From NCBI RefSeq assembly GCF_036417845.1, contig NC_090015.1:1-64000 (forward strand): a stretch of DNA of 64,000 nucleotides, given 5' to 3'. This stretch comes from Apteryx mantelli (taxonomy: Eukaryota). The translations under genes and the position numbers were made by a program. Under the pieces are notes generated by a model. That model saw only the letters and a list, made by a program, of their open reading frames with translations, was not told where the DNA came from and did not search any database. Positions 2,640-49,900 of this stretch are shown here, piece by piece (position 1 is the stretch's first letter; each line of letters opens with the position of its first letter).

Positions 2640-5600
2640 AGCCACCCGTGTCCCTGGCGTCCCCCCATGTCCCCAGGGTGTCACCTCGATGTCACCTGCA
2701 TCCCTGGTGTCCCCCCGTGTCCTCAGGGTGTCACCCTGTCACCTGGGTGTCACCTCCATCCCTGGTGTCACCTCCATCCCTGGTGTCCCCCATGTCCCTG
2801 GTGTCCCCCCATCCGTGGTGTCCCCCCATCCGTGGTGTCCCTCCGTCCTTGGTGTCCCTCCATCCCTGGTGTCCCCCATGTCCCTGGTGTCCCTCCATAC
2901 CTGGTGTCACCTCCATCCCTGATGTTCTTCCATCTCTGGTGTCCCTCCATCCCTGGTGTCCCCCATGTCCCTGGTGTTCCTCCACACCTGGTGTCACCTC
3001 CATCCCTGATGTTCTTCCATCTCTGGTGTTCCTCCATCCCTGGTGTCCCCCATGTCCCTGGTGTCCCCCCATCCGTGACGTCCCCTCATGCCCGGTGTCC
3101 CCCCGGCAGGACGTGACGCCGCTGCAGGTGGTGCTGGCCGACACGGCGCTGCGTCCCTGCTCCCCGCGTCCCCCGGGCGTCCCCCCCACGTCCCCCGGGT
3201 GTCCCCTGCTCCATCCGTGGTGTCCCTCCATCCTTAGTGTTCCTCTGTCCTTGGTGTCCCCCCATGTCCCTGGTGTCCCCCATGTCCCTGGTGTCTCTCC
3301 ATCTGTGGTGTCTCTCCATCCATGCTGTCCCCCCATCCGTGGTGTTCCTCCATCCGTGGTGTCCCCCATGTCCCTGGTGTCCCCCATGTCCCTGGTGTCC
3401 CCCCGTCCCTGGTGTCCCCCCGTCCCTGGTGTCCCCCCATCCCTGGTGTCATCTCCATCCCTGGTGTCATCTCCATCCCTGGTGTCCCCCATGTCCCTGG
3501 TGTCCCCCCATCCGTGGTGTCCCTCCGTCCTTGGTGTCCCTCCATCCCTGGTGTCCCCCATGTCCTTGGTGTCCCTCCATCCATGACGTCCCCTCATGCC
3601 CAGTGTCCCCCCGGCAGGACGTGACACCGCTGCAGGTGGTGCTGGCCGACACGGCCCTGCGTCCCTGCTCCCCGCATCCCCCGGGCGTCCCCCTCTCCAT
3701 CCCTGGTGTCCCCCCATCCTTGGTGTCCCCCCATCCTTAGTATCCCTCCATCCGTGGTGTCCCCCATGTCCCTGGTGTTCCCCCATCCCTGGTCTTCCTC
3801 CATCCGTGGTGTCCCCTCATCCGTGGTGTCCCCTCATCCGTGGTGTCCCCCATGTCCCTGGTGTCCCCCCATCCGGGGTGTCCCCCATTTCCCTGATGTT
3901 TCTCCATTCCTGGTGTCCCTCCATCCATGGTGTCCCCCATATCCCTGGTGTCCCACCATCCGTGGCGTCCCCTCATCCCTGGTGTCCCCCGTGTCCCTGG
4001 TGTCCCCCGTGTCCCTGGTGTCCCCCGTGTCCCTGGTTTCCCCCATGTCCCTGGTTTCCACCATGTCCCTGGTGTCCCCCCATCCCTGATGTTCCTCCAT
4101 CCCTGATGTCCCTCCATCCCTGATGTCTCTCCATCCGTGGTGTCCCCCTATCCGTGGTGTCCCCCATGTCCCTGGTGTCCCTCTGTGACGTCCCCTCATC
4201 CCTGGTGTCCCCCCGGCAGGACGTGACGCCGCTGCAGGTGGTGCTGGCCGACACGGCGCTGCGTCCCTGCTCCCTGCGTCCCCCGGGCGTCCCCCCCACG
4301 TCCCCTGGGTGTCCCCTGCTCCATCCGTGGTGTCCCTCCATCCTTAGTGTTCCTCCATCCCTGGTGTCCCCCATCCTTAGTATCCCTCCATCCGTGGTGT
4401 CCCTCCATCCGTGGTGTCCCCCATGTCCCTGGTGTTCCCCCATCCCTGGTCTTCCCCCATCCCTGGTGTCCCTCATCCGTGGTGTCCCCCCATGTCCCTG
4501 GTGTCCCCCCATGTCCCTGGTGTCTCCCATGTCCCTGGTGTCTCCCATGTCCCTGGTGTTCCTCCATCCATGGTGTCTCCCATGTCTCTGGTGTCCCTCC
4601 ATACCTGGTGTCCCCCATGTCCCTGGTGTCTCTCCATCTGTGGTGTCTCTCCATCCATGGTGTCCCCCCATCCGTGGTGTCCCCCATTTCCCTGATGTTC
4701 CTCCATTCCTGGTGTCCCTCCATCCCTGGTGTCCCCCATATCCCTGGTGTCCCTCCATCCGTGGTGTCCCCCATGTCCCTGGTTTCCCTCCATCCGTGGT
4801 GTCCCCCCATCCCTGGAGTTCCTCCATCGCTGGTGTTCCTCCATCCCTGGTGTCCCCCATATCCCTGGTGTCCCTCCATCCGTGGTGTCCCCCATGTCCC
4901 TGGTTTCCCTCCATCTGTGGTGTCCCCCCATCCCTGGAGTTCCTCCATCGCTGGTGTTCCTCCATCCCTGGTGTCCCCCATGTCCCTGGTGTCTCTCCAT
5001 CCCTGGTGTTCCTCCATCCATGGTGTCCCCCATGTCCCTGGTGTCTCTCCATCTGTGGTGTCTTTCCATCCCTGGTTTCCCTCCATCCATGGTGTCCCTC
5101 CATCCGTGGTGTCACCTCCATCCCTGATGTCCCTCTATCCCTGATGTCCCCTCATGCCCGGTGTCCCCCCGGCAGGATGTGACGCCGCTGCAGGTGGTGC
5201 TGGCTGACACGGCGCTGCGTCCCTGCTTTCTGCGTCCCCTGGGTGTCCCCACTCCATCCCTGGTGTCCCTCCATCCTTGGTGTCCCCCCATCCTTAGTGT
5301 TCCTCCATGTCCCTGGTGTTCCTCCATGTCCCTGGTGTTCCTCCATGTCCTTGGTGTTCCTCCATGTCCTTGGTGTCCCCCCATCCCTGGTGTCCCCCCA
5401 TCCCTGGTGTCCCTCCATCCGTGGTGTCCCCCATGTCCCTGGTGTCCCCCCATCCCTGATGTTCCTCCATCCCTGATGTTCCTCCATCCCTGATGTCCCT
5501 CCATCCGTGGTGTCCCCCATGTCCCTGGTGTCCCCCCATCCCTGATGTTCCTCCATCCCTGGTGTTCCTCCATCCGTGGTGTCCCCCATGTCCCTGGTGT

Positions 5601-9639: not shown

Positions 9640-11350
9640 GGGCCCCGACCCGTCAGTGGTGGGTGGGAGGTGGACCTCCGAGGAGGTGGCCGCAGGTGGC
9701 CCTGAGGGACCTCAACGGGCTCCTGAGGGATCAGGGTGGCACCGAGGGACCCTAAGGTGGCCCTGAAGGACCTCAACGGGCTCCTGAGGGGTCTGAGGAG
9801 GCCTCAAGGGATCTCAGTGGACCCCTAAGGTGGCCCTGAGGGACCTCAACGGGCTCCTGAGGGATCAGGGTGGCACCGAGGGACCCTAAGGTGGCCCTGA
9901 GGGAACTCATTGGGCTCCTGAAGGGTCTGAGGAGGCCTCAAGAGATCTCGATGGACCCCTAAGGTGGCCCCGAGGGGCTCAGGGTGGCTCCAAGGGACCC
10001 TAAGGTGGCCCTGAGGGATCTGAGGAGGCCTCAAGGGATCTGAGGAGGCCTCAAGGGATCTCAGTGGACCCCTAAGGTGGCCCTGAGGGACCTCAACGGG
10101 CTCCTGAGGGGTCAGGGTGGCACCGAGGGACCCTAAGGTGGCCCTGAGGGAACTCAACGGGCTCCTGAGGGGTCTGAGATGGCCCCAAGGGATCTGAGGA
10201 GGCCTCAAGGGATCTCGATGGACCCCTAAGGTGGCCCCGAGGGGCTCAGGGTGGCCCCGAGGGACCCTAAGGTGGCCCTGAGGGGTCTGAGGTGGCCCCG
10301 AGGGATCTGAGAAGGCCTCAAGGGATCTCAGTGGACCCCTAAGGTGGCCCTGAGGGACCTCAACGGGCTCCTGAGGGGTCAGGGTGGCACCAAGGGACCC
10401 TAAGGTGGCCCTGAGAGATCTGAGGAGGCCTCAAGGGATCTCAATGGACCCCTAAGGTGGTCCTGAGGGGTCAGGGTGGCACTGAGGGACCCTAAGGTGG
10501 CCCTGAGGGGTTTGAGGAGGCCTCAAGGGATCTCAGTGGATCCCTAAGGTGGCCCCGAGGGGCTCAGGGTGGCACTGAGGGACCCTAAGGTGGCCCTGAG
10601 AGATCTGAGGAGGACTCAGGGGATCTCGATGGACCCCTAAGGTGTCCCCACGGGGCTCAGGGTGGCTCCAAGGGACCCTAAGGTGGCCCTGAGGGGTCTG
10701 AGGTGGCCACAAGGGATTTGAGGAGGCCTCAAGGGATCTCAGTGGATCCCTAAGGTGGCCCCGAGGGGCTCAGGGTGGCACTGAGGGACCCTAAGGTGGC
10801 CCTGAGGGATCTGAGGAGGACTCAGGGGATCTCGATGGACCCCTAAGGTGGCCCTGAGGGGCTCAGGGTGGCTCCAAGGGACCCTAAGGTGGCCCTGAGG
10901 GGTCTGAGGTGGCCACAAGGGATTTGAGGAGGCCTCAAGGGATCTCGATGGACCCCTAAGGTGGCCCCAAGGGGCTCAGGGTGGCCCCAAGGGACCTAAG
11001 GTGGCCCTGAGGGATCTGAGGAGGCCTCAAGGGATCTCGATGGACCCCTAAGGTGGCCCCAAGGGGCTCAGGGTGGCACTGAGGGACCCTAAGGTGGCCT
11101 TGAGTGGGCTGAGGAGACCTCACAGGATCTCAGTGGATCCCTAAGGTGTCCCCACGGGGCTCAGGGTGGCCCTGAGGGACCCGAATGGACATCTAAGGTG
11201 GCCTCAAGGGACCCTTAAGTGGTCCAGAGGAGCTCAGGGTGGCCCAGACTGACCCCTAAGGTGGCCCCGAGGGGCTCAAGGTGGCCCCAAAGCTCCCTGA
11301 GGTGGCCTCAAGGAGGCCTGAGGGGGTCGCAAGGGACCCCACCGTGTCAG
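9640..11350. repeat. Tandem repeat of about 60-70-bp units (ccctaaggtggccctgagggacctcaacgggctcctgaggggtcagggtggcaccgagggac) with higher-order structure
   Basis: Direct reading. Confidence 0.85.
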
Positions 11351-19300: not shown

Positions 19301-19303
19301 CAG

Positions 19304-19569
19304 GTGCGGGCGGTGGTGGGCCAGACCTACATGCTGACGGCGACGGAGGAGCTGTGGGAGAAGGAGCTGGCGCCCGGCGTGGAGGCGCTGCTGGCGGCCG
19401 CCCGCGACCCCCGGGGCCAGCGCGGGGCCACCGCCGGGGACATCGGGGACGTCGGGGACGACGCCGGGGACACGGCGGGGCGGCGGCGCGACCGCACGCG
19501 GGCCGTCACCTTCCGCGTGCCCCACAACGCCGCCATGCAGCTCTACGACTACCGGGAGCGGCGGGCGCG
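19304..19569 (+). CDS. MVP: MVP coding exon ([88 protein letters not shown]+cg); AG 19302-19303, donor GT 19570-19571 (gtgagc); 3' phase 2
   Basis: Matches MVP '[30 protein letters not shown]...[25 protein letters not shown]'. It contains an in-frame GGGGAC(A/G)TC repeat (GDIGDVGDD) related to the downstream intronic satellite. Confidence 0.85.
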
Positions 19570-20949
19570 GTGAGCGGGGACGTTGGGGACATCGGGGACA
19601 TCGGGGAGGTTGGGGGCATCAGGGACATCTGGGACGTGGAGGACATCAGAGATGTTGGGGGTGTCAGGGATGTCGGGGACATTGGGGACATCAGGGATGT
19701 TGGGGACATCTGGGACATGGAGGACATCAGAGACGTTGGGGATGTTGGGGACGTCGGGGACATCGGGGGTGTTGGGGACGTCGGGGAGGTTGGGGGCGTC
19801 AGGGACATCTGGGACCTGGAGGACATCAGAGACGTTGGGAATATTGGGGATGTTGGGGACATCTGGGACGTGGAGGACATCAGGGACGTTGGGGATGTTG
19901 GGGACGTTGGGATGTCGGGGACATTGGGGACATCTGGGACGTGGAGGACATCAGGGACGGGGACGTTGGGGACCTCAGGGACATCTGGGACCTGGAGGAC
20001 ATCAGAGACGTTGGGGATGTTGGGGATGTTGGGGGCGTTGGGGACATCTGGGACATAGAGGACATCAGAGACGTTGGGGATGTTGGGGACATTGGGGACA
20101 TGGAGGACATCAGAGATGGGGATGTTGGGGACATTGGGGACATCTGGGACATGGAGGACATCAGGGACATTGGGGATGTTGGGGGCTTTGGGGATATGGA
20201 GGACATCAGAGACGTTGGGGATGTTGGGGATGTGGGGGACATCTGGGACCTGGAGGACATCAGAGACGTTGGGGATGTTGGGAGCATTGGGGACATGGAG
20301 GACATCAGAGATGGGGATGTTGGGGACATTGGGGACATCTGGGACATGGAGGACATCAGGGACATTGGGGATGTTGGGGACATTAAGGGGCATCAGGGAC
20401 ATCAGGGACTTGGAGGACATCAGAGACGTTGGGGACGTTGGGGGCGTCAGGGACGTCGGGGACATGGAGGACATCAGGGACTTTGGGGTTGTTGGGGACA
20501 TCAGGGACGTTGGGGACATCTGGGACACGGAGGACATCAGAGATGGGGACATTGGGGATGTCAGGGACATTGGGGACATCTGGGACACAGAGGACATCAG
20601 GGACGTTGGGGGACGTTGGGGGCGTCAGGGACATCTGGGACATGGAGGACATCAGAGACGGGGATGGTGGGGACGTTGGGGATGTTGGAGACATCTGGGA
20701 CATGGATGGCATCAGAGACAGGGACATTGGGGACATCTGGGACATGGAGGACATCTGAGACGTTGGGGATGTTGGGGACATCAGGGACATTGGGGATGTT
20801 GGGGACGTTGAGGACATCGGGGACATCAGGGACATCTGGGACATGGAGGACATCAGGGACATTGGGGCTGTCGGGGATGTTGGGGACGTTGGGGGTGTTG
20901 GGGACATGTGGGACATGGAGGACATCAGAGATGGGGATGGCGGGGACGT

Positions 20950-21080
20950 TGGGGACGCCGTTGGGGACACGGGGGACGCGGCGGGGCGGCGGCGCGACCG
21001 CACGCGGGCCGTCACCTTCCGCGTGCCCCACAACGCCGCCATGCAGCTCTACGACTACCGGGAGCGGCGGGCGCGGTGAG
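20950..21080 (+). other. Copy of the exon-8 3' end plus donor (…[35 protein letters not shown]|gtgagcgggg), inside the intron-8 satellite
   Basis: About 125 nt identical to 19445-19575, including the gtgagc donor, but lacking the 5' two-thirds of the exon. Confidence 0.85.
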
Positions 21081-23444
21081 CGGGGACGTTGGGGACATCG
21101 GGGACATCGGGGAGGTTGGGGGCATCAGGGACATCTGGGACGTGGAGGACATCAGAGATGTTGGGGGTGTCAGGGATGTCGGGGACATTGGGGACATCAG
21201 GGATGTTGGAGACATCTGGGACATGGAGGACATCAGAGACGTTGGGGATGTTGGGGACGTCGGGGACATCGGGGGTGTTGGGGACGTCGGGGAGGTTGGG
21301 GGCGTCAGGGACATCTGGGACCTGGAGGACATCAGAGACGTTGGGAATATTGGGGATGTTGGGGACATCTGGGACGTGGAGAACATCAGAGACATTGGGG
21401 ATGTTGGGGACATGGGGGACATTGGGGACATCAGGGACATGGAGGACATCAGGGACATTGGGGATGTTGGGGATGTTGGGGACATCTGGGACATGGAGGA
21501 CATCAGGGACGTTGGGGATGGTGGGGACGTTGGGGACATCTGGGACATGGAGGACATCAGGGATGCTGGGGACATTGGGGAGGTTGGGGATGTTGGGGAC
21601 ATCTGGGACATGGAGGACATCAGGGACATTGGGGCTGTCGGGGATGTCAGGGATGTTGGGGACGTTGGGGGCGTTGGGGACATGTGGGACATGGAGGACA
21701 GCAGAGACGTTGGGGATGTTGGGGACGTTAAGGGGCATCAGGGACATCAGGGACATGGAGGACATCAGAGACGGGGATGTTGGGGACATTGGAGGTGTCG
21801 GGGACATCTGGGACATGGAGGACATCAGAGATGTTGGGGACATTGGGGAGGTTGGGGATGTTGGGAACGTTGGGGACATCAGGGACATTGGGGACATCTG
21901 GGACCTGGAGAACATCAGAGACGTTGGGAATATTGGGGACGTCGGGGACATCTGGGATCTGGAGGACATCAGAGACGTTGGAGATGTTGGGGGCGTTGGG
22001 GACATTGGAGACATGGAGGACATCAGGGACGTTGGGGACATTGGGGATGTTGGGAACATGGAGGACATCAGGGACATTGGGGCTGTTGGGGACGTTGGGG
22101 ATGTCAGGGACGTTGGGGACATCTGGGACCTGGAGGACATCAGAGACGTTGGGGATGTTGGGGACATTGGGGACATGGAGGACATCAGAGATGGGGATGT
22201 TGGGGACATTGGGGACATCTGGGACATGGAGGACATCAGAGACGTTGGGGATGTTGGGAGCATTGGGGACATGGAGGACATCAGGGACATTGGGGATGTT
22301 GGGGACATTAAGGGGCATCAGGGACATCAGGGACTTGGAGGACATCAGAGACGTTGGGGACGTTGGGGGCGTCAGGGACGTCGGGGACATGGAGGACATC
22401 AGGGACGTTGGGGATGTTGGGGACATCAGGGACGTTGGGGACATCTGGGACACGGAGGACATCAGAGACGGGGACATTGGGGATGTCAGGGACATTGGGG
22501 ACATCTGGGACACAGAGGACATCAGGGACGTTGGGGACATCGGGGTCGTTGGGGACATCTGGGACGTGGAGGACATCAGGGACGTTGGGGATGTTGGGAG
22601 CATTGGGGACATGGAGGACATCAGGGACATTGGGCCTGTTGGGGACGTTGGGGACGTTGGGGACATCTGGGACATGGAGGACATCAGGGACGTTGGGGAT
22701 GTTGGGGACATTGGAGGTGTTGGGGACATCTGGGACATGGAGGACATCAGAGACGGGGACATTGGGGATGTTGGGGACGTTGGGGACATCAGGGACATGG
22801 AGGACATCAGGGACGTTGGGATGTTGGGGGCATTGGGGACATCGGGGACATGGAGAACATCAGAGACGTTGGGGACATTGGGGACGTTGGGGACATCGGG
22901 GACACAGAGGACATCAGGGACGTTGGGGATGTTGGGGACGTTGGGGACATCTGGGACGTGGAGGACATCAGGGACGTTGGGGATGTTGGGGACATCAGGG
23001 ACGTTGGGGACATCTGGGACACGGAGGACATCAGAGATGGGGACATTGGGGATGTCAGGGACATTGGGGACATCTGGGACACAGAGGACATCAGGGACGT
23101 TGGGGACGTCGGGGGCGTCAGGGACATCTGGGACATGGAGGACATCAGAGACGGGGATGGTGGGGACGTTGGGGATGTTGGAGACATCTGGGACATGGAT
23201 GGCATCAGAGACAGGGACATTGGGGACATCTGGGACATGGAGGACATCTGAGACGTTGGGGATGTTGGGGACATCAGGGACATTGGGGATGTTGGGGACG
23301 TTGAGGACATCGGGGACATCAGGGACATCTGGGACATGGAGGACATCAGGGACATTGGGGCTGTCGGGGATGTTGGGGACGTTGGGGGTGTTGGGGACAT
23401 GTGGGACATGGAGGACATCAGAGATGGGGATGGCGGGGACGTTG

Positions 23445-23575
23445 GGGACGCCGTTGGGGACACGGGGGACGCGGCGGGGCGGCGGCGCAACCGCACGCGG
23501 GCCGTCACCTTCCGCGTGCCCCACAACGCCGCCATGCAGCTCTACGACTACCGGGAGCGGCAGGCGCGGTGAGCG
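23445..23575 (+). other. Second copy of the exon-8 3' end plus donor, carrying two substitutions (D>N and R>Q)
   Basis: Same 125-nt block with cgcaaccgc and cggcaggcgcgg variants. The donor gtgagc lies at 23569. Confidence 0.85.
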
Positions 23576-24399
23576 GGGACGTTGGGGACATCGGGGACAT
23601 CGGGGAGGTTGGGGGCATCAGGGACATCTGGGACGTGGAGGACATCAGAGATGTTGGGGGTGTCAGGGATGTCGGGGACATTGGGGACATCAGGGATGTT
23701 GGAGACATCTGGGACATGGAGGACATCAGGGACGTTGGGGATGTTGGGGACATTGGGATGTCGGGGACATTGGGGACATCTGGGACATGGAGGACATCAG
23801 AGACAGGGATGTTGGGGACCTCAAGGATATCTGGGACCTGGAGGACATCAGAGATGTTGGGGATGTTGGGGATGTTGGGGGCGTTGGGGACATCTGGGAC
23901 ATGGAGAACATCAGGGACATTGGGGATGTTGGGGGCTTTGGGGATATGGAGGACATCAGAGACGTTGGGAACGTTGGGGATGTTGGGGACATCTGGGACG
24001 TGGAGGACATCAGGGACGGGGACGTTGGGGACGTTGGGGACATCTGGGACATGGAGGACATCAGAGACATTGGGCCTGTTGGGGACGTTGGGGATGTTGG
24101 GGACATCTGGGACATGGAGGACATCAGAGACATTGGGCCTGTTGGGGACATTAAGGGGCATCAGGGACATCAGGGACTTGGAGGACATCAGAGACGTTGG
24201 GGACGTTGGGGGCGTTGGGGACATCGGGGACTTGGAGGACATCAGAGATGTTGGGGATGTCGGGGACGTTGGGGATGTTGGGGACATCTGGGACAGGGAC
24301 ATCTGGGACACGGAGGACATCAGGGACGTTGGGGACGTTGGGGACGTCGGGGCTGTTGGGGATGTCGGGGACGTTGAGGACATCATGGATGTCCATGGC

Positions 24400-27300
24400 G
24401 CTGGTGCCACCGGGGGGGGGGGCACGTGTGTGGGTGCGTGTGACCTGCGTGTGGGTGCGTGTGGGGGCACGTGACACCCACGTGACACCCGTGTGGGTGC
24501 GTGTGACACACATGTAGGTGCGTGTGACCTGCGTGTGGGTGCGTGTGACACCCGTGTTGGTGCGCGTGACGTGTGTGGGTGCCTATAACACACGTGTGGG
24601 TGCGTGACATTGCGTGTGGGTGCGTGTGACGTGTGTGGGTGCGTGTGACCCACGTGTGGGTGCATGTGGGTGCGTGTGGGGGGGCGTGACACCTGTGTGA
24701 CACCCGTGTGGGCGCGTGTGACCCGTGTGTGGGTCTGTGTGGGTGCGTGTGACACCCGTGTGGGTGCGTGTGGGTGTGTGTGACCCACATGTGGGTGTGT
24801 GCGACCTGTGTGTGGGTGCGTGTGGCCCGCGTGTGGGCCCGTGTGACACCCGTGGGTGCGTGTGACACGCATGTGGATGCGTGTAGGTGCGTGTGACCCA
24901 CGTGTGGGGGCATGTGGGGGTGCGTGACACCTGTGTGACACCCGTGTGGGTGCGTGTGACACACGTGTGGGTGCGTGTGACACATGTGGGTGCGTGTGAC
25001 CCATGTGTGTGTGCGTGTGACACACGTGGGTGCGTGTGAAATGCATGTGGCTGCGTGTGACCCACGTGTGGGTGTGTGTGACACACGTGTGGGTGCGTGT
25101 GGGTGCGTGTGACACCCATGTGGGTGCGTGTGACCTGCGTGTGGGTGCATGTGACCCACGTGTGGGTGCGTGTGACACGTGTGGGTGCGTGTGGGTGCAT
25201 GTGACACCCATGTGGGTGCGTGTGACCCGTGTGTGGGCCTGTGTGACCACTGTGGGTGCGTGTGACACACGTGTGGGTGCGTGTGACGTGGGAGTGGGTG
25301 CGTGTGACCTGCGTGTGGGTGCGTGTGACCCACGTGTGGGTGTGTGTGACCCACATGTGGCTGCATGTGACACCCGTGTGGGTGTGTGTGACCCACGTGT
25401 GGGGGCATGTGACCCACGTGTGGGGGCGTGTGGGGGCGCATGACACCTGTGTGACACCCGTGTGGGTGTGTGTGACCTGTGTGTGGGTGCGTGTGGGTGC
25501 GTGTGACACGTGTGGGTGTGTGTGACACCCGTGTGGGTGCGTGTGACCTGCGTGTGGGTGGGTGGGACACACGTGCGGGTGCGTGTAAAATGCGTGTGGG
25601 TGCGTGTGACACACATGTGGGGGTGTGTGACACGTGTGTGGGTGCGTGTGGGTGCGTGTGACACCTATGTGGGTGCATGTGACCTGCGTGTGGGTGCGTG
25701 TGACACGTGTGTGGGTGTGTGTGGGTGCGTGGGACCCGCATGTGGGTGCGTGTGACCTGCGTGTGGGCCTGTGTGACCCCCGTGGGCGCGTGTAACACGC
25801 GTGTGGGTGCGTGTAACACGTGTGTGGGTGCGTGTGACCTGCGTGTGGGCCCATGTGACCCCTGTGGACGCGTGTAACACACGTGTGGGTGCGTGTGGGT
25901 GTGTGTGACCCACGTGTGGGTGCGTGTGACCTGCGTGTGGGCCTGTGTGACCCCCGTGGGTGTGTGCAACATGCGTGTGGGGGCGTGTGACCCACGTGTG
26001 GGGGCGTGTGGGGGCGCATGACACCTGTGTGACACCCGTGTGGGTGCGTGTGACCTGTGTGTGGGTGCGTGTGGGTGTGTGTGACACGTGTGGGTGTGCG
26101 TGACCCACGTGTGGGTGTGTGTGACCTGCGTGTGGGTGGGTGGGACACACGTGGGTGCGTGTAAAATGCGTGTGGGTGCGTGTGACCCGCGTGTGGGTGT
26201 GTGACACGTGTGTGGGTGCGTGTGGGTGCGTGTGACACCCATGTGGGTGCGTGTGACCTGCGTGTGGGTGCATGTGACCCGCGTGTGGGTGCGTGTGACC
26301 TGCGTGTGGGCCCGTGTGACCCCCGTGGGTGCGTGTAACACGCGTGTGGGTGCGTGTGGGTGCGGGTGACCCACGTGTGGGTGCGTGTGACCTGCGTGTG
26401 GGCCTGTGTGACCCCCGTGGGTGGGTGCAACACGCGTGTGGGTGCGTGTGATGCGCGTGTGGCTGCGTGTGACCCCTGTGTGGCTGCGTGTGGGGACGCG
26501 TGACACCCGTGGGACCCCCGTGGGGTGACCCCCGTGTCCCCCGTGTCCCCACGCAGGGTGGTGCTGGGCCCCGAGCTGGCGCTGCTGGCGCCCGGCGAGC
26601 AGCCCACGGCGCCGTCCCTCTCCGGGGGGGGACACGTGTGACCCCCGCGTGGGTGCGTGTGACACCTGTGGGGTGACACGTCACGCGTGTGGGTGCGTGT
26701 GACATGTGTATGGGTGCGTGGGAGACGTGTGGGTGCGTGTGACCCGTATGTGGGTGTGGGTGACCTGCGTGTGGGTCCATGTGACACACACGTGGGTGCG
26801 TGTGACATGCGTGTGGGTGCGTGTGACGTGGGAGTGGGTGCGTGTGACCTGCGTGTGGGTGCGTGTGACCCACGTGTGGGGGTGTGTGGGGGCGCATGAC
26901 ACCTGTGTGACACCCGTGTGGGTGCGTGTGACCTGCGTGTGGGTGCGTGTGGGTGTGTGTGACACGTGTGGGTGTGCGTGACCCACGTGTGGGTGTGTGT
27001 GACCTGCGTGTGGGTGGGTGGGACACACGTGCGGGTGCGTGTGAAATGCGTGTGGGTGCGTGTGACCCACATGTGGGGGTGTGTGACGCGTGTGTGGGTG
27101 CGTGTGGGTGCGTGTGACACCTATGTGGGTGCATGTGACCTGCGTGTGGGGGCGTGTGACCCGCGTGTGGGTGCGTGACATGTGTGTGGGTGTGTGTGGG
27201 TGCGTGGGACCCGCGTGTGGGTGCGTGTGACCTGCGTGTGGGCCTGTGTGACCCCCGTGGGTGCGTGTAACACGCGTGTGGGTGCGTGTAACACGTGTGT

Positions 27301-28160
27301 GGGTGCGTGTGACCTGCGTGTGGGCCCGTGTGACCCCCGTGGGCGCGTGTAACACACGTGTGGGTGCGTGTGGGTGCGTGTGACCCATGTGTGGGTGCGT
27401 GTGACCGGCGCGTGGGTGCGTGTGGGTGCGTGTGACGTGGGTGTGGGTGCGTGTGGGTGCATGTGACATGCATGTGGGTGCGCGTGACCCCCGTGGGGTG
27501 ACCCCCGTGTCCCCCCCACCCACGCAAGGTGGTGCTGGGCCCCGAGCTGGCGCTGCTGGCGCCCGGCGAGCAGCCCACGGCGCCGTCCCTCTCCGGGGTG
27601 GGACGCGTGTGACCCCCGTGGGGACCCGCGTGGGTGCGTGTGACCCCCGTGGGGTGACCCCCGTGTCCCCCCCACCCACGCAGGGTGGTGCTGGGCCCCG
27701 AGCTGGCGCTGCTGGCGCCCGGCGAGCAGCCCACGGTGCTGTCCCTCTCCGGGGGGGGACGCGTGTGACCCCCGCGTGGGTGCGTGTGGGTGCGTGTGAC
27801 CCCCGTGGGGATGCGTGTGACCCCCGTGGGGTGACCCCCGTGTCCCCCGTGTCCCCACGCAGGGTGGTGCTGGGCCCCGAGCTGGCGCTGCTGGCGCCCG
27901 GCGAGCAGCCCACGGCGCCGTCCCTCTCCGGGGTGGGACACGTGTGACCCCCGTGGGGACCCGCGTGGGTGCGTGTGACCCCCGTGGGGTGACCCCCGTG
28001 TCCCCCGTGTCCCCACGCAGGGTGGTGCTGGGCCCCGAGCTGGCGCTGCTGGCGCCCGGCGAGCAGCCCACGGCGCCGTCCCTCTCCGGGGGGGGACGCG
28101 TGTGACCCCCGCGTGGGTGCGTGTGACCCCCGTGGGGTGACCCCCGTGTCCCCCGTGTCC
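24400..28160. repeat. GT-rich repeat of 9-30-bp units (gtgtgggtgcgtgtgacccacgtgtgggtgcgtgtgac), carrying the exon-9 junction copies near its 3' end
   Basis: Direct reading. The alternating purine-pyrimidine GT/GC character is evident. Confidence 0.9.
26530..28100 (+). other. Five truncated copies of the exon-9 acceptor plus its 5' 80 nt, starting at 26556, 27529, 27684, 27863 and 28021; they lie upstream of the real exon at 28169
   Basis: The string ccccacgcag|ggtggtgctgggccccgagctggcgctgctggcgcccggcgagcagcccacgg(c/t)gc(c/t)gtccctctccgggg recurs, with each copy diverging after ctctccgggg. The second copy has caag in place of cag. Confidence 0.85.
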
Positions 28161-28168
28161 CCACGCAG

Positions 28169-28366
28169 GGTGGTGCTGGGCCCCGAGCTGGCGCTGCTGG
28201 CGCCCGGCGAGCAGCCCACGGTGCTGTCCCTCTCCGGGGGACGCCCCAAGCGTCCCCACGCCCGCCGCGCCCTCTGCCTGCTGCTGGGCCCCGACTTCTG
28301 CGCCGACCTCGTGGCCATCGAGACCGCCGACCACGCCCGCCTCCAGCTCCAGCTCGCCTACAACTG
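28169..28366 (+). CDS. MVP: MVP coding exon ([68 protein letters not shown]); AG 28167-28168, donor GT 28367-28368; phase 2 at both ends
   Basis: Almost identical to MVP '[66 protein letters not shown]'. It is the last and only complete copy in a series of five upstream truncated copies. Confidence 0.88.
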
Positions 28367-31640: not shown

Positions 31641-33150
31641 AATGTCCCCAGAGCTCGAACCCCGTGATCTGCCCGGCCCTGTTCAGCTTCAGCGAGGCCC
31701 CATGTCCCCAATGTCCCCAATGTCCCCGACGTCCCCAATGTCCCTGATGTCCCCAATGCCCCCAATATCTCCAATGTCCCCGATGTCCCCAATGTCCCTG
31801 ATGTCCCTGATGTCCCCAATGTCCCCGACGTCCCCATCGTCCCTGATGTCCCCAATGCCCCCAATATCTCCAATGTCCCCGATGTCCCCAATGTCCCTGA
31901 TGTCCCTGATGTCCCCAACGTCCCTGATGTCCCCAATGCCCCCAATATCTCCAATGTCCCCGATGTCCCCAATGTCCCTGATGTCCCCGATGTCCCCAGA
32001 ACTCCAACCGGGTGATCTGCTCGGCCGTGTTCGGCTTCAACGAGGCCCCATGTCCCTAATGTCCCGTAATGTCCCCAATGCCCCGTAATGTCCCCGATGT
32101 CCCCAACATCCTCAATGTCCCCAATGTCCCCAACGTCCCCGATGTCCCCGACGTCCCCGCCGTCCCCAGAACTCCAACCGGGTGATCTGCTCGGCCGTGT
32201 TCGGCTTCGATGAGGCCCCGTGTCCATAATGTCCCGTAATGTCCCCAATGTCCCCAACATCCTCAATGTCCCCAATGTCCCCGATGTCCCTGATGTCCCT
32301 GACGTCCCCGCCGTCCCCAGAACTCCAACCGGGTGATCTGCTCGGCCACGTTCGGCTTCGACGAGGCCCCGTGTCCATAATGTCCCGTAATGTCCCCAAT
32401 GTCCCCAAGGTCCCCGACATCCCCAATGTCCCCGATGTCCTGACATCCCCGATGTCCCCAATGTCCCCGATGTCCCCAGAACTCCAACTGGGTGATCTGC
32501 TCGGCTGTGTTCGGCTTCGATGAGGCCCCGTGTCCCTAATGTCCTGTAATGTCCCCGATGTCCCAACGTCCCCAACGTCCCCAATGTCCTCAATGTCCCC
32601 AACATCCCTGATGTCCCCAACGTCCCTGATGTCCCCAGAACTCCAACCGGGTGATCTGCTCAGCCGTGTTCGGCTTCGACGAGGCCCCGTGTCCATAATG
32701 TCCCATGATGTCCCCAACATCCCTGATGGCCCTGATGTCCCCGACGTCCCTGATGTCCCCGATGTCCCTGATGTCCCCAACGTCCCTGCTGTCCCCAGAA
32801 CTCCAACCGGGTGATCTGCTCGGCCGTGTTCGGCTTCAACGAGGCCCCGTGTCCCTAATGTCCCATGATGTCCCCGATGTCCCCAACGTCCCTGATGTCC
32901 CCGATGTCCCCGACGTCCCCAACGTCCCCAGAACTCCAACCGGGTGATCTGCTCGGCCGTGTTCGGCTTCGACAAGACCCTATGTCCCTAATGTCCCGTA
33001 ATGTCCCCGATGTCCCGTAATGTCCCTGCTGTCCCCAACATCCTCAATGTCCCCAACGTCTCCGATGTCCCCGACATCCCTGATGTCCCCGATGTCCCCA
33101 GAACTCCAACCGGGTGATCTGCTCGGCCGTGTTCGGCTTCGACGAGGCCC
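31640..33150 (+). other. Nine copies of the exon-11 acceptor plus its 5' 50 nt (ccccag|aactccaaccgggtgatctgctcggccgtgttcggcttcgacgag), starting at 31652 (degenerate), 32000, 32170, 32321, 32480, 32639, 32799, 32932 and 33102
   Basis: Near-identical strings recur every 133-170 bp inside a higher-order repeat of 15-21-bp 'gatgtcccc' units. The copies continue gccccgtgtcc, whereas the real exon at 33253 continues ggcggccgcctgcgc. Confidence 0.85.
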
Positions 33151-33252
33151 CGTGTCCCTAATGTCCCGTAATGTCCCCAATGTCCCCAACGTCCCCGATG
33201 TCCCCGATGTCCCTGACGTCCCCGATGTCCCCAATGTCCCCGATGTCCCCAG

Positions 33253-33465
33253 AACTCCCAACCGGGTGATCTGCTCGGCCGTGTTCGGCTTCGACGAGGG
33301 CGGCCGCCTGCGCGAGCGCCTCCGCTTCGCCCCCAACGGCCTGGTGGTCACCAGCGTGGACATCCAGAGCGTGGAGCCCGTGGACCAGCGGACGCGCGAC
33401 GCCCTGCAGCGCAGCGTCCAGCTCGCCATCGAGATCGCCACCAACTCCCAGGAGGCCACCGCCAG
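33253..33465 (+). CDS. MVP: MVP coding exon ([70 protein letters not shown]-ag); AG 33251-33252, donor GT 33466-33467. Apparent +1 frameshift in a C-run near 33257-33259
   Basis: Matches MVP 'NSARIIRMAVFGFE...[47 protein letters not shown]'. The nine upstream truncated copies read aactccaaccgg in frame, whereas this copy reads aactcccaaccgg. Confidence 0.7.
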
Positions 33466-39428: not shown

Positions 39429-39566
39429 GTGAAGCTGCTGCAGGGCCTGGGGCTGCAGTCGACGCTCATCACCGACGGCGCCGCCCCCCTCAACCTCTTC
39501 GCCACCGCCCGGGGGCTCCTGGGGCTGGCCCCGCCCCCCGACCCCGCCCCCGGACACGCCCCCTGA
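39429..39566 (+). CDS. MVP: MVP terminal coding exon ([45 protein letters not shown]); AG 39427-39428; stop TGA 39564-39566
   Basis: Matches MVP C-terminus '[43 protein letters not shown]'. The frame matches ORF 39381..39566. Confidence 0.9.
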
Positions 39567-40399: not shown

Positions 40400-41900
40400 G
40401 GGAGCCGGGGGGGGGGGCTGCTACGGTCCTGGGGACAACCAAGGAGGGGGGGGGGCTGGGTGTCCTGGGGGCACCCATGGGTGCTCCTGGGGGGGGTCCC
40501 CACCCCTAGGATGGGTGCTGGACACCCTGAAGACATCTAAGGTGGCTTCTAGGGGGTGGTCACCACCCCTAGGACACCCCGGGGTGGGTGCTGGACACCC
40601 TGAAGACATCTAAGGTGGCTTCTGGGGGGTGGTCACCACCACTAGGACACCCTGGGGTGGGTGCTGGGTGCCCTAGGGGCACCCGTGGGGGCTCCTGGGA
40701 GATGGTCACCACCCCAGGACGCTACAAGGTGGGTCCTAAGTACGCTGGGGGCACCCAAGGGTGCTCCTGGGGGATGGGCAACATCTTGAGGGCGCCCAAG
40801 GGTGCTCGTAGGAGACGCCCACCACCCTGAGAACAAGCAGATGTGCTCCTGGGAGGCCCTGGAGACACCTAAAGGTGCTTCTAGGAGACGGCCACCACCC
40901 TGGTGACACCCAAGGGTGCTCCTAGGAGACGACCACCACCCTGAGAACACCCAAAAGTGCTTCTAGGAGATGACTACCACCCTCGTGACACCCAAGGGTG
41001 CTCCTAGAAGATGGCCACCACCTTGAGAACACCCAAGGGTGCTCCCGGGAGATGGTCTTCACCCTTGTGACACCCAAGGGTGCTCCTAGAAGATGGCCAC
41101 CACCCTGAGGACACCCAAGGGTGCTCCTAGGAGATGGCCACCACCTTGAGAACACCCAAGGGTGCTCCCAGGAGACAACCACCACCCTGGTGACACCCAA
41201 GGGTGCTCCTAAAAGATGGCCACCACCCTGAGGACACCCAAGGGCGCTCCCAGGAGATGGCCACCACTCTGAGAACACCCAAGGGTGCTCCCAGGAGATG
41301 GCCACCACCCTGGTGACACCCAACAGTGCTCCTATGAGACGACCACCACCCTGGTGACACCCAAGGGTGCTCCTAAAAGATGGCCACCACCCTGATGACA
41401 CCCAGAGGAGCTCCTAGAAGATGGCCACCACCCTGAGAACACCCAAAAGTGCTTCTAGGAGATGACCACCACCCTGGTGACACCCCAGGGTGCTCCTATG
41501 AGATAACCACCACTCTGGTGACACCCCAGGGTGCTCCTAAGAGACGACCACCACCCTGGTGACACCCCAGGGTGCTCCTATGAGATAACTACCACTCTGG
41601 TGACACCCAAGGGTGCTCCTAGGAGATGGCCACCACTCTGGTGACACCCAAGGGTGCTCCTAAGAGACAACCACCACCCTGGTGACACCCCAGGGTGCTC
41701 CTAGGAGATGGCCACCACTCTGGTGACACCCAAGGGTGCTCCTAGGAGATGGCCACCACTCTGGTGACACCCAAGGGTGCTCCTAAGAGACAACCATCAC
41801 CCTGGTGACACCCAAGGGTGCTCCTAGGAGATGGCCACCACTCTGGTGACACCCAAGGGTGCTCCTATGAGATACCCACCACCCTGGTGACACCCCCATG
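40400..41900. repeat. Satellite of about 42-bp units (gtgacacccaagggtgctcctaggagatggccaccaccctg) repeated about 35 times, within the presumed TLCD3B 3'UTR
   Basis: Direct reading. Confidence 0.9.
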
Positions 41901-43989: not shown

Positions 43990-46900
43990 AAAAATGACGT
44001 CAGGGGACCCAGGCGTCCGGGAGGGACCCAGGCGTCCGGGCAGGGACCCGGGTGTCCAGGGGACCCGGGTGTTTGGTGGCCTCGTGGCCACCATCTCCCC
44101 TGGTTTCACTCTACATCTGGGTCATCTTCAAGGGACCCAGGCGTCCGGGGAGACTCGTGTCACCTCTAGAGGGACCAGGCGTCCGGGAGGGGCCCAGGCG
44201 TCCGGGGAGTCTCGCGTCACCTCTAGGGGGACCCGGGCGTCCGGGAGGGGCCCAGGCGTCCGGGGAGTCTCGCGTCACCTCTAGGGGGACCCGGGCGTCC
44301 GGGAGGGGCCCAGGCGTCCGGGGAGCCTCGCGTCACCTCTAGGGGACCCGGGCGTCCGGGAGGGGCCCAGGCGTCCGGGGAGTCTCGCGTCACCTCTAGG
44401 GGGACCCGGGCGTCCGGGAGGGGCCCAGGCGTCCGGGGAGTCTCGCGTCACCTCCAGGGGGACCCGGGCGTCCGGGAGGGGCCCAGGCGTCCGGGGAGCC
44501 TCGCATCACCTCTAGGGGGACCCGGGCGTCCGGGAGGGGCCCAGGCGTCCGGGGAGTCTCGCGTCACCTCTAGAGGGACCCGGGCGTCCGGGAGGGGCCC
44601 AGGCGTCCGGGGAGTCTCGCGTCACCTCTAGAGGGACCCGGGCGTCCGGGAGGGGCCCAGGCGTCCGGGGAGTCTCGCGTCACCTCTAGGGGCACCCGGG
44701 CGTCCGGGAGGGGCCCAGGCGTCCGGGGAGTCTCGCGTCACCTCTAGGGGGACCCGGGCGTCCGGGAGGGGCCCAGGCGTCCGGGGAGTCTCGCGTCGCC
44801 TCTAGGGGGACCCGGGCGTCCGGGAGGGGCCCAGGCGTCCGGGGAGTCTCGCGTCACCTCTAGGGGGACCCGGGCGTCCGGGAGGGGCCCAGGCGTCCGG
44901 GGAGTCTCGCGTCACCTCTAGGGGGACCCGGGCGTCCGGGAGGGGCCCAGGCGTCCGGGGAGTCTCGCGTCACCTCTAGGGGGACCCGGGCGTGCTGGAG
45001 GGGCCCAGGCGTCCGGGGAGTCTCGCGTCGCCTCTAGGGGGACCCGGGCGTCCGGGAGGGGCCCAGGCGTCCGGGGAGTCTCGCGTCGCCTCTAGGGGGA
45101 CCCGGGCGTCCGGGAGGGGCCCAGGCGTCCGGGGAGCCTCGCGTCACCTCTAGGGGGACCCGGGCGTCCGGGAGGGGCCCAGGCGTCCGGGGAGCCTCGT
45201 GTCACCTCTAGGGGGGCCCGGGCGTCCGGGAGGGGCCCAGGCGTCCGGGGAGTCTCGCGTCACCTCTAGGGGGACCCGGGCGTCCGGGAGGGGCCCAGGC
45301 GTCCGGGGAGTCTCCTGTCACCTCTAGGGGCACCCGGGCGTCCGGGAGGGGCCCAGGCGTCCGGGGAGTCTCGCGTCACCTCTAGGGGACCCGGGCGTGC
45401 GGGAGGGGCCCAGGCGTCCGGGGAGTCTCGCGTCACCTCTAGGGGGACCCGGGCGTCCGGGAGGGGCCCAGGCGTCCGGGGAGCCTCGCGTCACCTCTAG
45501 GGGGACCCGGGCGTCCGGGAGGGGCCCAGGCGTCCGGGGAGTCTCGCGTCACCTCTAGAGGGACCCGGGCGTCCGGGAGGGGCCCAGGCGTCCGGGGAGC
45601 CTCGCGTCACCTCTAGAGGGACCCGGGCGTCCGGGAGGGGCCCAGGCGTCCGGGGAGTCTCGCGTCACCTCTAGGGGGACCCGGGCGTCCGGGAGGGGCC
45701 CAGGCGTCCGGGGAGTCTCGCGTCACCTCTAGGGGGACCCGGGCGTCCGGGAGGGGCCCAGGCGTCCGGGGAGTCTCGCGTCGCCTCTAGGGGGACCCGG
45801 GCGTCCGGGAGGGGCCCAGGCGTCCGGGGAGTCTCGCGTCACCTCTAGGGGGACCCGGGCGTCCGGGAGGGGCCCAGGCGTCCGGGGAGTCTCGCGTCAC
45901 CTCTAGGAGACCCGGGCGTCCGGGAGGGGCCCAGGCGTCCGGGGAGTCTCGCGTCACCTCTAGGGGGACCCGGGCGTCCGGGAGGGGCCCAGGCGTCCGA
46001 GGAGTCTGGCGTCACCTCTAGGGGGACCCGGGCGTCCGGGAGGGGCCCAGGCGTCCGGGGAGTCTCGCGTCACCTCTAGGGGGACCCGGGCGTCCGGGAG
46101 GGGCCCAGGCGTCCGGGGAGTCTCGCGTCACCTCTAGGGGGACCCGGGCGTCCGGGAGGGGCCCAGGCGTCCGGGGAGTCTCGCGTCACCTCTAGGGGGA
46201 CCCGGGCGTCCGGGAGGGGCCCAGGCGTCCGGGGAGTCTCGCGTCACCTCTAGAGGGACCCAGGTGTCCGGGAGGGGCCCAGGCGTCCGGGGAGTCTCGC
46301 GTCGCCTCTAGGGGGACCCGGGCGTCCGGGAGGGGCCCAGGCGTCCGGGGAGTCTCGCGTCACCTCTAGGGGGACCCGGGCGTCCGGGAGGGGCCCAGGC
46401 GTCCGAGGAGTCTGGCGTCACCTCTAGGGGGACCCGGGCGTCCGGGAGGGGCCCAGGCGTCCGGGGAGTCTCGCGTCACCTCTAGGGGGACCCGGGCGTC
46501 CGGGAGGGGCCCAGGCGTCCGGGGAGTCTCGCGTCACCTCTAGGAGACCCGGGCGTCCGGGAGGGGCCCAGGCGTCCGGGGAGTCTCGCGTCACCTCTAG
46601 AGGGACCCAGGCGTGCGGGAGGGGCCCAGGCGTCCGGGGAGTCTCGCGTCACCTCTAGAGGGACCCAGGCGTGCGGGAGGGGCCCAGGCGTCCGGGGAGT
46701 CTCGCGTCACCTCTAGGGGGACCCGGGCGTCCGGGAGGGGCCCAGGCGTCCGGGGAGTCTCGCGTCACCTCTAGGGGGACCCAGGTGTCCGAGAGGGGCC
46801 CAGGCGTCCGGGGAGTCTCGCGTCACCTTTACGGGGACCCAGGAGTCCGGGAGGGGCCCAGGCGTCCGGGGAGTCTCGCGTCGCCTCTAGGGGGACCCGG

Positions 46901-49900
46901 GTGTCCGGGAGGGGCCCAGGCGTCCGGGGAGGGGCCCAGGCGTCCGGGGAGTCTCGCGTCACCTCTAGGGGGACCCGGGCGTCCGGGAGGGGCCCAGGCG
47001 TCCGGGGAGTCTCGCGTCACCTCTAGGGGACCCGGGCGTCCGGGAGGGGCCCAGGCGTCTGGGGAGCCTCGTGTCACCTCTAGAGGGGCCCAGGCGTCCG
47101 GGGAGTCTGGCGTCACCTCTAGGGGGACCCGGGCGTCCGGGAGGGGCCCAGGCGTCTGGGGAGCCTCGTGTCACCTCTAGAGGGGCCCAGGCGTCCGGGG
47201 AGTCTGGCGTCACCTCTAGGGGGACCCGGGCGTCCGGGAGGGGCCCAGGCGTCTGGGGAGCCTCGTGTCACCTCTAGAGGGGCCCAGGCGTCCGGGGAGT
47301 CTGGCGTCACCTCTAGGGGGACCCGGGCGTCCGGGAGGGGCCCAGGCGTCCGGGGGGTCTCGCGTCACCTCTAGAGGGGCCCAGGCGTCCGGGGAGTCTG
47401 GCGTCACCTCTAGGGGGACCCGGGCGTCCGGGAGGGGCCCAGGCGTCTGGGGAGCCTCGTGTCACCTCTAGAGGGGCCCAGGCGTCCGGGGAGTCTCGCG
47501 TCACCTCTAGAGGGACCCGGGCGTCCGGGAGGGGCCCAGGCGTCCGGGGAGCCTCGCGTCACCTCTAGGGGGACCCGGGCGTGCGGGAGGGGCCCAGGCG
47601 TCCGGGGAGTCTCGTGTCACCTCTAGGGGGACCCAAGTGTCCGGGAGGGGCCCAGGCGTCCGGGGAGTCTCGCGTCACCTCTAGGGGGACCCGGGCGTGC
47701 GGGAGGGGCCCAGGCGTCCGGGGAGTCTCGCGTCACCTCTAGGGGGACCCGGGCGTGCGGGAGGGGCCCAGGCGTCCGGGGAGTCTCGTGTCACCTCTAG
47801 GGGGACCCGGGCGTCCGGGAGGGGCCCAGGCGTCCGGGGAGTCTCGCGTCACCTCTAGAGGGACCCGGGCGTCCGGGAGGGGCCCAGGCGTCCGGGGAGT
47901 CTCGTGTCACCTCTAGGGGGACCCGGGCGTCCGGGAGGGGCCCAGGCGTCCGGGGAGTCTCGCGTCACCTCTAGGGGGACCCGGGCGTCCGGGAGGGGCC
48001 CAGGCGTCCGGGGAGCCTCGCGTCACCTCTAGGGGGACCCGGGCGTCCGGGAGGGGCCCAGGCGTCCGGGGAGTCTCGCGTCACCTCTAGGGGGACCCGG
48101 GCGTCCGGGAGGGGCCCAGGCGTCCGGGGAGTCTCGCGTCACCTCTGGGGGGACCCGGGCGTCCGGGAGGGGCCCAGGCGTCCGGGGAGTCTCGCGTCAC
48201 CTCTAGAGGGGCCCAGGCGTCCGGGGAGTCTCGCGTCACCTCTGGGGGGACCCGGGCGTCCGGGAGGGGCCCAGGCGTCCGGGGAGTCTCGCGTCACCTC
48301 TAGGGGGACCCGGGCGTCCGGGAGGGGCCCAGGCGTCCGGGGAGCCTCGCGTCACCTCTAGGGGGACCCGGGCGTCCGGGAGGGGCCCAGGCGTCCGGGG
48401 AGTCTCGCGTCACCTCTAGGGGGACCCAGGCGTCCGGGAGGGGCCCAGGCGTCCGGGGAGTCTCGCGTCACCTCTAGGGGGACCCGGGCGTCCGGGAGGG
48501 GCCCAGGCGTCCGGGGAGTCTCGCGTCACCTCTAGGGGGACCCGGGCGTCCGGGAGGGGCCCAGGCGTCAGGGGAGTCTGGCGTCACCTCTAGGGGGACC
48601 CGGGCGTCCGCGAGGGGCCCAGGCGTCCGGGGAGCCTCGCGTCACCTCTAGGGGGACCCGGGCGTCCGGGAGGGGCCCAGGCGTCCGGGGAGTCTCGCGT
48701 CACCTCTAGGGGGACCCGGGCGTCCGGGAGGGGCCCAGGCGTCCGGGGAGTCTCGCGTCGCCTCTACGGGGACCCGGGCGTCCGGGAGGGGCCCAGGCGT
48801 CCGGGGAGTCTCGCGTCACCTCTAGAGGGACCCGGGCGTCCGGGAGGGGCCCAGGCGTCCGGGGAGTCTCGCGTCACCTCTAGGGGGACCCGGGCGTCCG
48901 GGAGGGGCCCAGGCGTCCGGGGAGCCTCGCGTCACCTCTAGGGGGACCCGGGCGTCCGGGAGGGGCCCAGGCGTCCGGGGAGTCTCGCGTCACCTCTAGG
49001 GGGACCCGGGCGTCCGGGAGGGGCCCAGGCGTCCGGGGAGTCTCGCGTCACCTCTAGGGGGACCCGGGCGTCCGGGAGGGGCCCAGGCGTCCGGGGAGCC
49101 TCGCGTCGCCTCTAGGGGGACCCGGGCGTCCGGGAGGGGCCCAGGCGTCCGGGGAGTCTCGCGTCACCTCTAGAGGGACCCGGGCGTCCGCGAGGGGCCC
49201 AGGCGTCCGGGGAGTCTCGCGTCGCCTCTAGGGGACCCGGGCGTCCGGGAGGGGCCCAGGCGTCCGGGGAGCCTCGCGTCACCTCTAGGGGGACCCGGGC
49301 GTCCGGGAGGGGCCCAGGCGTCCGGGGAGTCTCGCGTCACCTCTAGGGGGACCCGGGCGTCCGGGAGGGGCCCAGGCGTCCGGGGAGTCTCGCGTCACCT
49401 CTAGGGGGGCCCAGGCGTCCGGGGAGTCTCGCGTCACCTCTAGGGGGACCCGGGCGTCCGGGAGGGGCCCAGGCGTCCGGGGAGTCTCGCGTCACCTCTA
49501 GGGGGGCCCAGGCGTCCGGGGAGTCTCGCGTCACCTCTAGGGGGACCCGGGCGTCCGGGAGGGGCCCAGGCGTCCGGGGAGTCTCGCGTCACCTCTAGGG
49601 GGACCCAGGTTTCCGGGAGGGGCCCAGGCGTCCGGGGAGTCTCGCGTCACCTCTAGGGGGACCCGGGCGTCCGGGAGGGGCCCAGGCGTCCGGGGCATCT
49701 CGCGTCACCTCTAGGGGGACCCGGGCGTGCGGGAGGGGCCCAGGCGTCCGGGGAGTCTCGCGTCACCTCTAGGGGGACCCGGGCGTCCGGGAGGGGCCCA
49801 GGCGTCCGGGGAGTCTCGCGTCACCTCTAGGGGACCCGGGCGTCCGGGAGGGGCCCAGGCGTCCGGGGAGCCTCGCGTCACCTCTAGGGGGGCCCGGGCG

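Follow-up and report, generated by a model that had tools for sequence, protein, structure and literature searches.

We analyzed a 64,000-nucleotide (nt) stretch of Apteryx mantelli DNA (contig NC_090015.1, positions 1 to 64,000 of the forward strand; hereafter the window), which carries most of the vertebrate major vault protein (MVP) gene on its + strand, and found that the 3′ end of one MVP exon, together with its 5′ splice site (the donor), occurs twice more in the downstream intron. Very probably the MVP gene of this bird is a case of exon stuttering, in which the local tandem-repeat instability of a GC-rich intron dragged the edge of the exon along. Sequence or exon stuttering of chicken dot-chromosome genes was described by Hron et al. 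2026 (Genome Biol Evol, PMC12954441; preprint 2025), and in our literature search the term exon stuttering was not found outside that work. The MVP case is a further example of this recently described kind, not a new kind.

The MVP gene and its exon 8

As judged by tblastn, the gene runs from about position 900 to a stop codon near 39565. The probe was a human MVP sequence, and its use was limited to locating exons. The exon at 19304-19569 corresponds to human MVP residues 398-479 and is preceded by the acceptor ccccccAG (at 19302-19303); seven MVP exons are visible before it in the window, hence the name exon 8 used here. Its identity is independent of this probe, since a phmmer search of the PDB (E = 7e-21) and Pfam (Vault_4 and Vault_3) confirm it separately. 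The closest sequences in the protein search were single-exon bird fragments with 63-68% protein identity, including an NCBI entry of Rissa tridactyla; no match of this search exceeded 68% identity or was a full-length MVP. The GC content of the window is 60-78%, and Tandem Repeats Finder (TRF) revealed that every MVP intron in it is filled by a tandem array of its own.

The end of exon 8 and its donor are duplicated twice in intron 8

When exon 8 was compared with the window by blastn, matches were observed at 20941-21082 (93% over 145 nt, with 3 gaps) and 23434-23575 (92%). The authentic sequences, the copies and the block involved in the second duplication are the following (a slash marks the exon-intron junction):

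19304..19569, + strand: authentic MVP exon, the eighth visible in the window (PDB phmmer, Pfam, tblastn)
19570..19575, + strand: authentic donor GTGAGC of exon 8 (GT at 19570-19571, context CG/GTGAGC)
20972..21081, + strand: copy 2, the last 104 nt of exon 8 and the GTGAGC donor (GT at 21076; looser homology back to 20941)
23465..23574, + strand: copy 3, the last 104 nt of exon 8 and the GTGAGC donor (GT at 23569; looser homology back to 23434)
20413..21258, + strand: source block of the second duplication, 846 bp with copy 2 inside it (second occurrence at 22907-23751, 98.2% identity, offset 2494)

With blastn-short, an ungapped core was delimited in each copy: 19466-19569 matched 20972-21075 with 99% identity (198 bits) and 23465-23568 with 97% identity (182 bits), and the looser homology reaches about 135 nt into exon 8. 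The offsets from exon 8 are 1506 and 3999 nt. An earlier inspection of the letters alone (the sequence-only reading) had proposed that the 3′ end of exon 8 and its gtgagc donor recur twice in the intron, 1.5 kb and 4.0 kb downstream, and that there are three identical donors. The analysis upholds these points: between positions -20 and +20 the donor context of copy 2 is identical to the authentic one, and that of copy 3 differs from it at a single base.

The homology runs far beyond the donor and is much more extensive than the sequence-only reading had noted. In a self-blast, 19466-19905 matched 20972-21411 (98.9%) and 19466-19752 matched 23465-23751 (98.3%), and the copies carry the last exon base, the GTGAGC donor and then 180-336 nt of intron. 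Almost without exception the copies differ by transitions, among which several are CpG to CpA changes, and copies 2 and 3 have derived states in common at the positions equivalent to 19472 and 19704. The transitions and the shared derived states indicate real mutation after duplication and give the order exon, copy 2, copy 3; hence, copy 3 derives from copy 2. Since the copies diverge by about 1%, both duplications appear to be recent. With the order of events legible, MVP is a well-resolved case of a phenomenon described once so far.

Four exon edges of the MVP gene recur in its introns

A screen modelled on that of Hron et al., in which each exon was compared with the introns by blastn-short, detected 19 exon-edge copies that fall into four stutter families. 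Each copy reaches the splice site, is in direct orientation and lies inside a TRF array. The maximum score obtained with five shuffles of the MVP introns was 34.2 bits. Exon 9 and the three families other than that of exon 8 are the following:

28169..28366, + strand: authentic exon 9 (human MVP residues 479-545)
3107..5221, + strand: four copies of the acceptor and initial 49 nt of the exon whose start is at about 5663 (matches at 3107, 3615, 4217 and 5173)
26555..28092, + strand: five copies of the exon-9 acceptor with the initial 71-74 nt of that exon (matches at 26555, 27528, 27682, 27861 and 28019)
32004..33147, + strand: eight copies of the acceptor and some 49 nt of the exon whose start is at 33253 (inside a AATGTCCCC-type array)

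The 17 copies of these three exons lie in upstream introns, and the copies of the exon-8 tail in the downstream intron; in total, intron 8 contains 3 donors and 6 acceptors. The duplication in intron 8 had been taken for a singular event, a view that does not stand given 19 exon-edge copies in four families of the same gene and a published phenomenon.

At the start of the last of these exons (33253-33262) the authentic sequence is AACTCCCAAC, and all eight intronic copies have AACTCCAAC (CCC versus CC at 33257-33259). The extra C would cause a frameshift, as the upstream exon ends in phase 0 (CACAAG/gt); it is either a homopolymer error of the assembly or a real disabling mutation.

KCTD13 and MAZ are neighbours of human MVP at 16p11.2. 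In chicken, KCTD13 and MAZ are on chr38 (supplements of PMC12954441), as is ALDOA (main text); MVP is not named in the main text or in two supplement files of that work. Hron et al. reported that the introns of chicken dot-chromosome genes are full of local imperfect tandem repeats, and that 236 introns of 115 genes carry copies of the lateral part of the neighbouring exon along with its splice site (PMC12954441). The stuttered exon parts measure 20-187 bp, with a median of 4 copies and a source within 1 base of the exon border, and a hit was defined by blastn-short as at least 20 nt with a bit score above the shuffled-intron maximum of 42.1 (PMC12954441). Intron length varied strongly among individuals, 95% of the screened exon-stuttering introns were length-variable in nanopore reads, and the example of PHF8 intron 18 was checked against the raw nanopore reads (PMC12954441). 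The repeats were said never to cross into exons, so that coding regions are intact (PMC12954441).

MVP shows the features of stuttering that were compared, namely same-strand copies in the adjacent intron, a source at the exon border, an included splice site and a repeat-filled intron, and the scores of the exon-8 copies exceed both the maximum of the MVP shuffles and the published one. As in chicken, an exon edge and its splice site occur in direct orientation among imperfect tandem repeats of the adjacent intron, multiple introns of one GC-rich gene are affected, and these introns consist almost wholly of arrays. The MVP copy lengths (42-104 nt) and copy numbers (2-8) are within the published ranges. 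Two differences were found: the exon-8 copies are 1.5 and 2.5 kb apart and form no tight cluster, and MVP exon 8 itself contains in-frame units of the array type, whereas the published exons are unaltered.

Intron 8 begins with a G-rich minisatellite

Intron 8 is essentially all array, TRF covering 19575-24384 and 24423 to about 28240. Its two main arrays are the following:

19575..24384, + strand: G-rich minisatellite (GGGGAYRTY)n (TRF: one array, period 9/18, 4.8 kb, about 538 nine-nt copies)
24423..27480, + strand: second, unrelated array of the GTGTGGGTGCGTGTGAC type (TRF: period 21/42)

The first array starts 6 nt past the end of exon 8. Its units include GGGGACATC, GGGGATGTT and GGGGACGTT, and self-blast revealed a patchwork of 150-850-bp internal duplications within it. 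Both its unit and its length lie within the range of a minisatellite (a unit of ~6-100 bp over at least 0.5 kb). The sequence-only reading had correctly placed the duplicated exon edge inside a GGGGACATC-type minisatellite, a situation now explained as published exon stuttering, but the unit size that it gave, 18-21 bp, has to be replaced by the TRF period.

The array has 65 G-quadruplex (G4) motifs on the coding strand and 0 on the other. Structure-prone DNA has been discussed as a possible cause of such instability (PMC12954441), and the density of G4 motifs on the coding strand fits this suggestion. According to a preprint on non-B DNA in birds, G4 motifs are dense in bird introns and in their minisatellites, most strongly on dot chromosomes. 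The MVP array resembles classical GC-rich minisatellites (variable number tandem repeats) in its short G-rich unit (9/18 bp), kilobase length, higher-order duplications and strand asymmetry. It differs from them in that, at +7 of the intron, it abuts a splice site and has captured exon sequence, and in that nearly every intron of the gene is filled by an array of this sort.

Another array of the gene, at 31698-33250, consists of the intron-8 unit in reverse complement (AATGTCCCC/GATGTCCCC). The GGGGAYRTY motif matches 69 times in reverse orientation there and 178 times in forward orientation in intron 8, and it is nearly absent elsewhere. In addition, CGTCCCCGACGTCCCCGATGTCCCC occurs three times in that array and matches the reverse complement of a tract in exon 8 (see below) at 24/25 positions. 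A strictly local origin is not easily reconciled with two opposite-orientation arrays that belong to the same motif family.

Units of the array type lie in frame within exon 8

The element that may set MVP apart from the published genes is the following:

19436..19480, + strand: in-frame tract within exon 8, made of four units of the GGGGAC type (9/12 nt) and encoding 15 residues (unit positions, shuffle test)

GGGGAC starts at 19436, 19445, 19454 and 19466, in frame in all four cases, and the reading frame of exon 8 is intact despite these array-type units. The most frequent 9-mer of the array, with 59 copies, is GGGGACATC, and this is also the first unit of the tract. The duplicated block has its left edge inside the tract, and in the copies the tract has one extra 9-nt unit and forms an unbroken run into the array. 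The presence of the array motif in frame inside exon 8, as the sequence-only reading had it, is thus confirmed.

The equivalent loop of rat MVP (residues 429-448, in repeat 8) is disordered and unseen in the crystal structure (PMC3595041). The loop that holds the tract is 7 amino acids (aa) longer than in human MVP. It is also 5 aa (15 nt) longer than in four other bird sequences and far more repeat-like. None of those four has GGGGAC in the loop; Rissa has GGAGACATC and GGACATTGGGG there. MAFFT places the 15-nt gap upstream of the GD tract, and the divergence of the loop precludes a dependable alignment. The comparison of exon 8 across species, which had been proposed as a check, thus bears out a longer loop and the lack of GGGGAC in the four birds, but the difference in length cannot be placed on the GD tract. 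That the GD tract is itself the insert was considered and is not established, the loop alignment being ambiguous and the MAFFT gap lying upstream of the tract.

We consider that the exonic tract probably exchanges sequence with the array. It is unlikely that the two are unrelated, with the resemblance due to G-rich composition or independent slippage and the breakpoint in the tract due to chance. Such independence would fit the exon of other birds, which is partly similar (GGAGACATC, GGACATTGGGG) in the absence of any large array, and it would fit other MVP exons with a coding microsatellite of their own, e.g., (GGTGAC)n at 985-1026. The first 150 nt of intron 8 from the four other birds also gave a weak local alignment with the array (z of 3.0, 1.2, 3.4 and 2.2), a further point on the side of independence. 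However, each of 17 consecutive exonic 9-mers (19435-19451) has 7-59 occurrences in intron 8, a recurrence in the adjacent intron that is seen for no further segment internal to an exon of the MVP gene. Four or more GGGGAC occurred in only 65 of 100,000 shuffles of exon 8, and the other 14 exons have 0-1. The identity of the commonest array unit with the first exonic unit, and the uninterrupted passage from tract to array in the copies, likewise argue against independence.

The sequence-only reading went further and held that the coding repeat and the satellite are the same expanding sequence, and that the array invades the coding sequence. The first statement survives in part, as the edge of the duplicated block in the exonic tract fits a single exchanging family. 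The second goes further than the data, which do not fix a direction: other birds already have a motif-like exon and G-rich, GGGATGT-type sequence at the start of intron 8. One possibility is that the array was seeded by the exonic tract once the first duplication had taken place; alternatively, the exon may have been converted by the array, or both may stem from a G-rich ancestor. The weak alignment of the intron-8 starts of the four other birds was obtained when ancestral intron sequence was considered as the source of the array. Coding minisatellites in disordered regions, such as those of mucin type, are alike in that the unit is a multiple of 3, the loop is disordered and the frame is kept; MVP differs from them in having only four units, with a non-coding array of the same unit 90 nt downstream.

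Proposed origin of the copies

The copies could have arisen in two successive out-of-register exchanges or replication slips that duplicated the tail of exon 8. Unequal exchange, slippage and gene conversion of minisatellites have been cited as possible mechanisms of stuttering (PMC12954441). In the first event, in a register of 1506 bp, the exonic GGGGAC units would have been engaged with a like unit of the intronic array, and the last ~104-135 nt of exon 8 would have been copied together with the GTGAGC donor. We infer an exchange between an exonic and an intronic unit because the left end of the duplicated block lies inside the GGGGAC tract. In the second event, in a register of 2494 bp, the 846-bp block holding copy 2 would have been duplicated again. 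Changes in the exonic tract might be tolerated, as they would fall in a disordered surface loop and come in a 3-codon unit.

Tentatively, we propose that the exonic GGGGAC units and the array could form one exchanging family, which would have triggered the capture of the exon tail and would rewrite the repeat-8 loop in 9-nt (3-codon) steps. The junction itself points to exon-intron repeat-unit homology as the trigger. If the tract does exchange with the array, stuttering can alter the protein, which bears on the fast evolution and frequent loss of dot-chromosome genes. Such exchange would be a counter-example to the published intact exons, and a route by which dot-chromosome instability could remodel, and perhaps eventually destroy, proteins.

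Several points weigh against an origin by stuttering, or against this account of it: i) the published claim is that repeats never enter exons, so that the MVP tract either departs from it or is an independent coincidence; ii) the junction sequence supports a homology-driven exchange at two of the four families, that of exon 8 and that of exon 9, where the motif common to the junction is clear (GGGGACGC), and the families at about 5663 and 33253 have no clear shared junction motif; iii) array size and copy number are those of one assembled sequence; iv) the non-use of the decoy donors is a prediction from sequence; and v) MVP was assigned to the stuttering class by features of its sequence, and the published class also includes dot-chromosome location and length polymorphism.

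The extra donors are most likely passive by-products

In the frame of exon 8 there is a TGA at 19571-19573, and three more stops precede donor 2. Transcripts that used donor 2 or 3 would be truncated, because the TGA is in frame. The possibility of an in-frame, GD-rich insertion of 502 codons by way of donor 2 (1506 being a multiple of 3) was ruled out by this TGA and the three further stops. In the array upstream of the decoy donors the pyrimidine content before an AG never exceeds 45%, and it is 65-80% at most real acceptors. As a usable acceptor is missing upstream in the array, the decoy donors should not be definable as internal exons. It is most likely that the extra donors are passive by-products, rather than functional splice sites, and they are unlikely to matter for the protein.

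The decoys of exon 9 may be of greater concern for the cell. Of the five decoy acceptors, four have the real 30-nt pyrimidine-rich context, and the fifth (27526) differs from it at a few bases. Two of the decoys are followed by GGG/GTGGGA, the real exon-9 donor being GTGGGC. Putative pseudo-exons result at 27529-27597 (69 nt, frame kept, no stop) and 27863-27932 (70 nt, frameshift). Pseudo-exons and decoy sites of long vertebrate introns are similar in that sites of consensus quality are presumably unused because exon definition fails; the MVP decoys differ from them in being exact recent paralogues, not chance matches. With 3 identical donors and 6 near-identical acceptors, this one intron is a trap for annotation and for the calling of junctions from RNA-seq data.

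A function of the duplicated donors and exon-9 acceptors, be it as regulated alternative or decoy sites, as a source of isoforms subject to nonsense-mediated decay that tune MVP, or in the recruitment of U1 across a long G-rich intron, seems very improbable to us. The near-identity of the three donors over 40 positions, and the decoy acceptors that keep the real context, two of them with the GTGGGA donor-like site, are what a functional role would lead one to expect, and Hron et al. mention such copies as potential alternative transcripts (PMC12954441). Nevertheless, the identity is explained by recent duplication (about 1% divergence), not by conservation, and the products of the decoy donors meet an immediate stop. 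Moreover, the exon-8 tail copies are absent from Rissa, and such copy numbers vary among chicken individuals (PMC12954441).

Also very improbable is an assembly artefact, in which a low-complexity G-rich array, mis-expanded by the long-read assembler, falsely duplicated the exon-tail block: although the array is rich in G4 motifs, has 60% GC and 92-99% internal duplications and is of a kind hard to sequence and assemble, although the likely 1-nt homopolymer discrepancy at 33257-33259 (CC in eight copies, CCC in the exon) shows that errors are possible, and although an independent sequence from the same species was not found, the copies differ by transitions rather than homopolymer indels and in a nested, tree-like pattern, the same architecture occurs in three other families with 4, 5 and 8 copies, and in chicken the PHF8 case was checked against nanopore reads and 95% of the screened introns were length-variable (PMC12954441).

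Open reading frames of the array were also considered as genes on either strand and rejected, Pfam returning only a spurious collagen-type low-complexity hit. Rfam gave nothing in 17-29 kb.

MVP in other birds and further repeats of the window

Rissa tridactyla has a single exon-8 sequence, with no large array in the 10 kb downstream. In that assembly (GCA_028500815.1, 3650-10640) the MVP exons are compact, with introns of less than 1 kb, and stops and a frameshift are present. After exon 8 only degenerate exon-9-like pieces were observed, at 10449-10507 and at 10566-10633 (the latter with a stop), and the 10 kb that follow contain no other MVP exon. The Rissa gene may be decaying, or mis-assembled there. 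In another bird, short-read contigs were available from Logan; 20 were found, and the 6 examined all end about 350 bp past exon 8, which suggests that an unassemblable repeat is present in intron 8 of that bird too.

Within the window, exon 8 (19364-19396) and exon 9 (28185-28209) have unusually long words in common, GAGCTGGCGCCCGGCG and GGCGCTGCTGGCG (ELAPG..ALLA versus ELALLAPG in the protein). The in-frame microsatellite at 985-1026, in full (GGTGAC/GACGAC)n, lies in another exon and encodes 14 residues, in a loop that exceeds the human one by 9 aa. Beyond the gene, a tandem array at 40745-41895 consists of 28 copies of a 41-bp unit, CTGAGGACACCCAAGGGTGCTCCTAGGAGATGGCCACCACC; the chicken CNM and PO41 repeats have this same period, which is the feature compared. 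Finally, a satellite with a 58-bp unit (higher-order periods 116/174) starts about 4.5 kb beyond the MVP stop and occupies 44131-64000; it measures at least 19.9 kb, running off the window, with 77% GC and 274 G4 motifs on the + strand.

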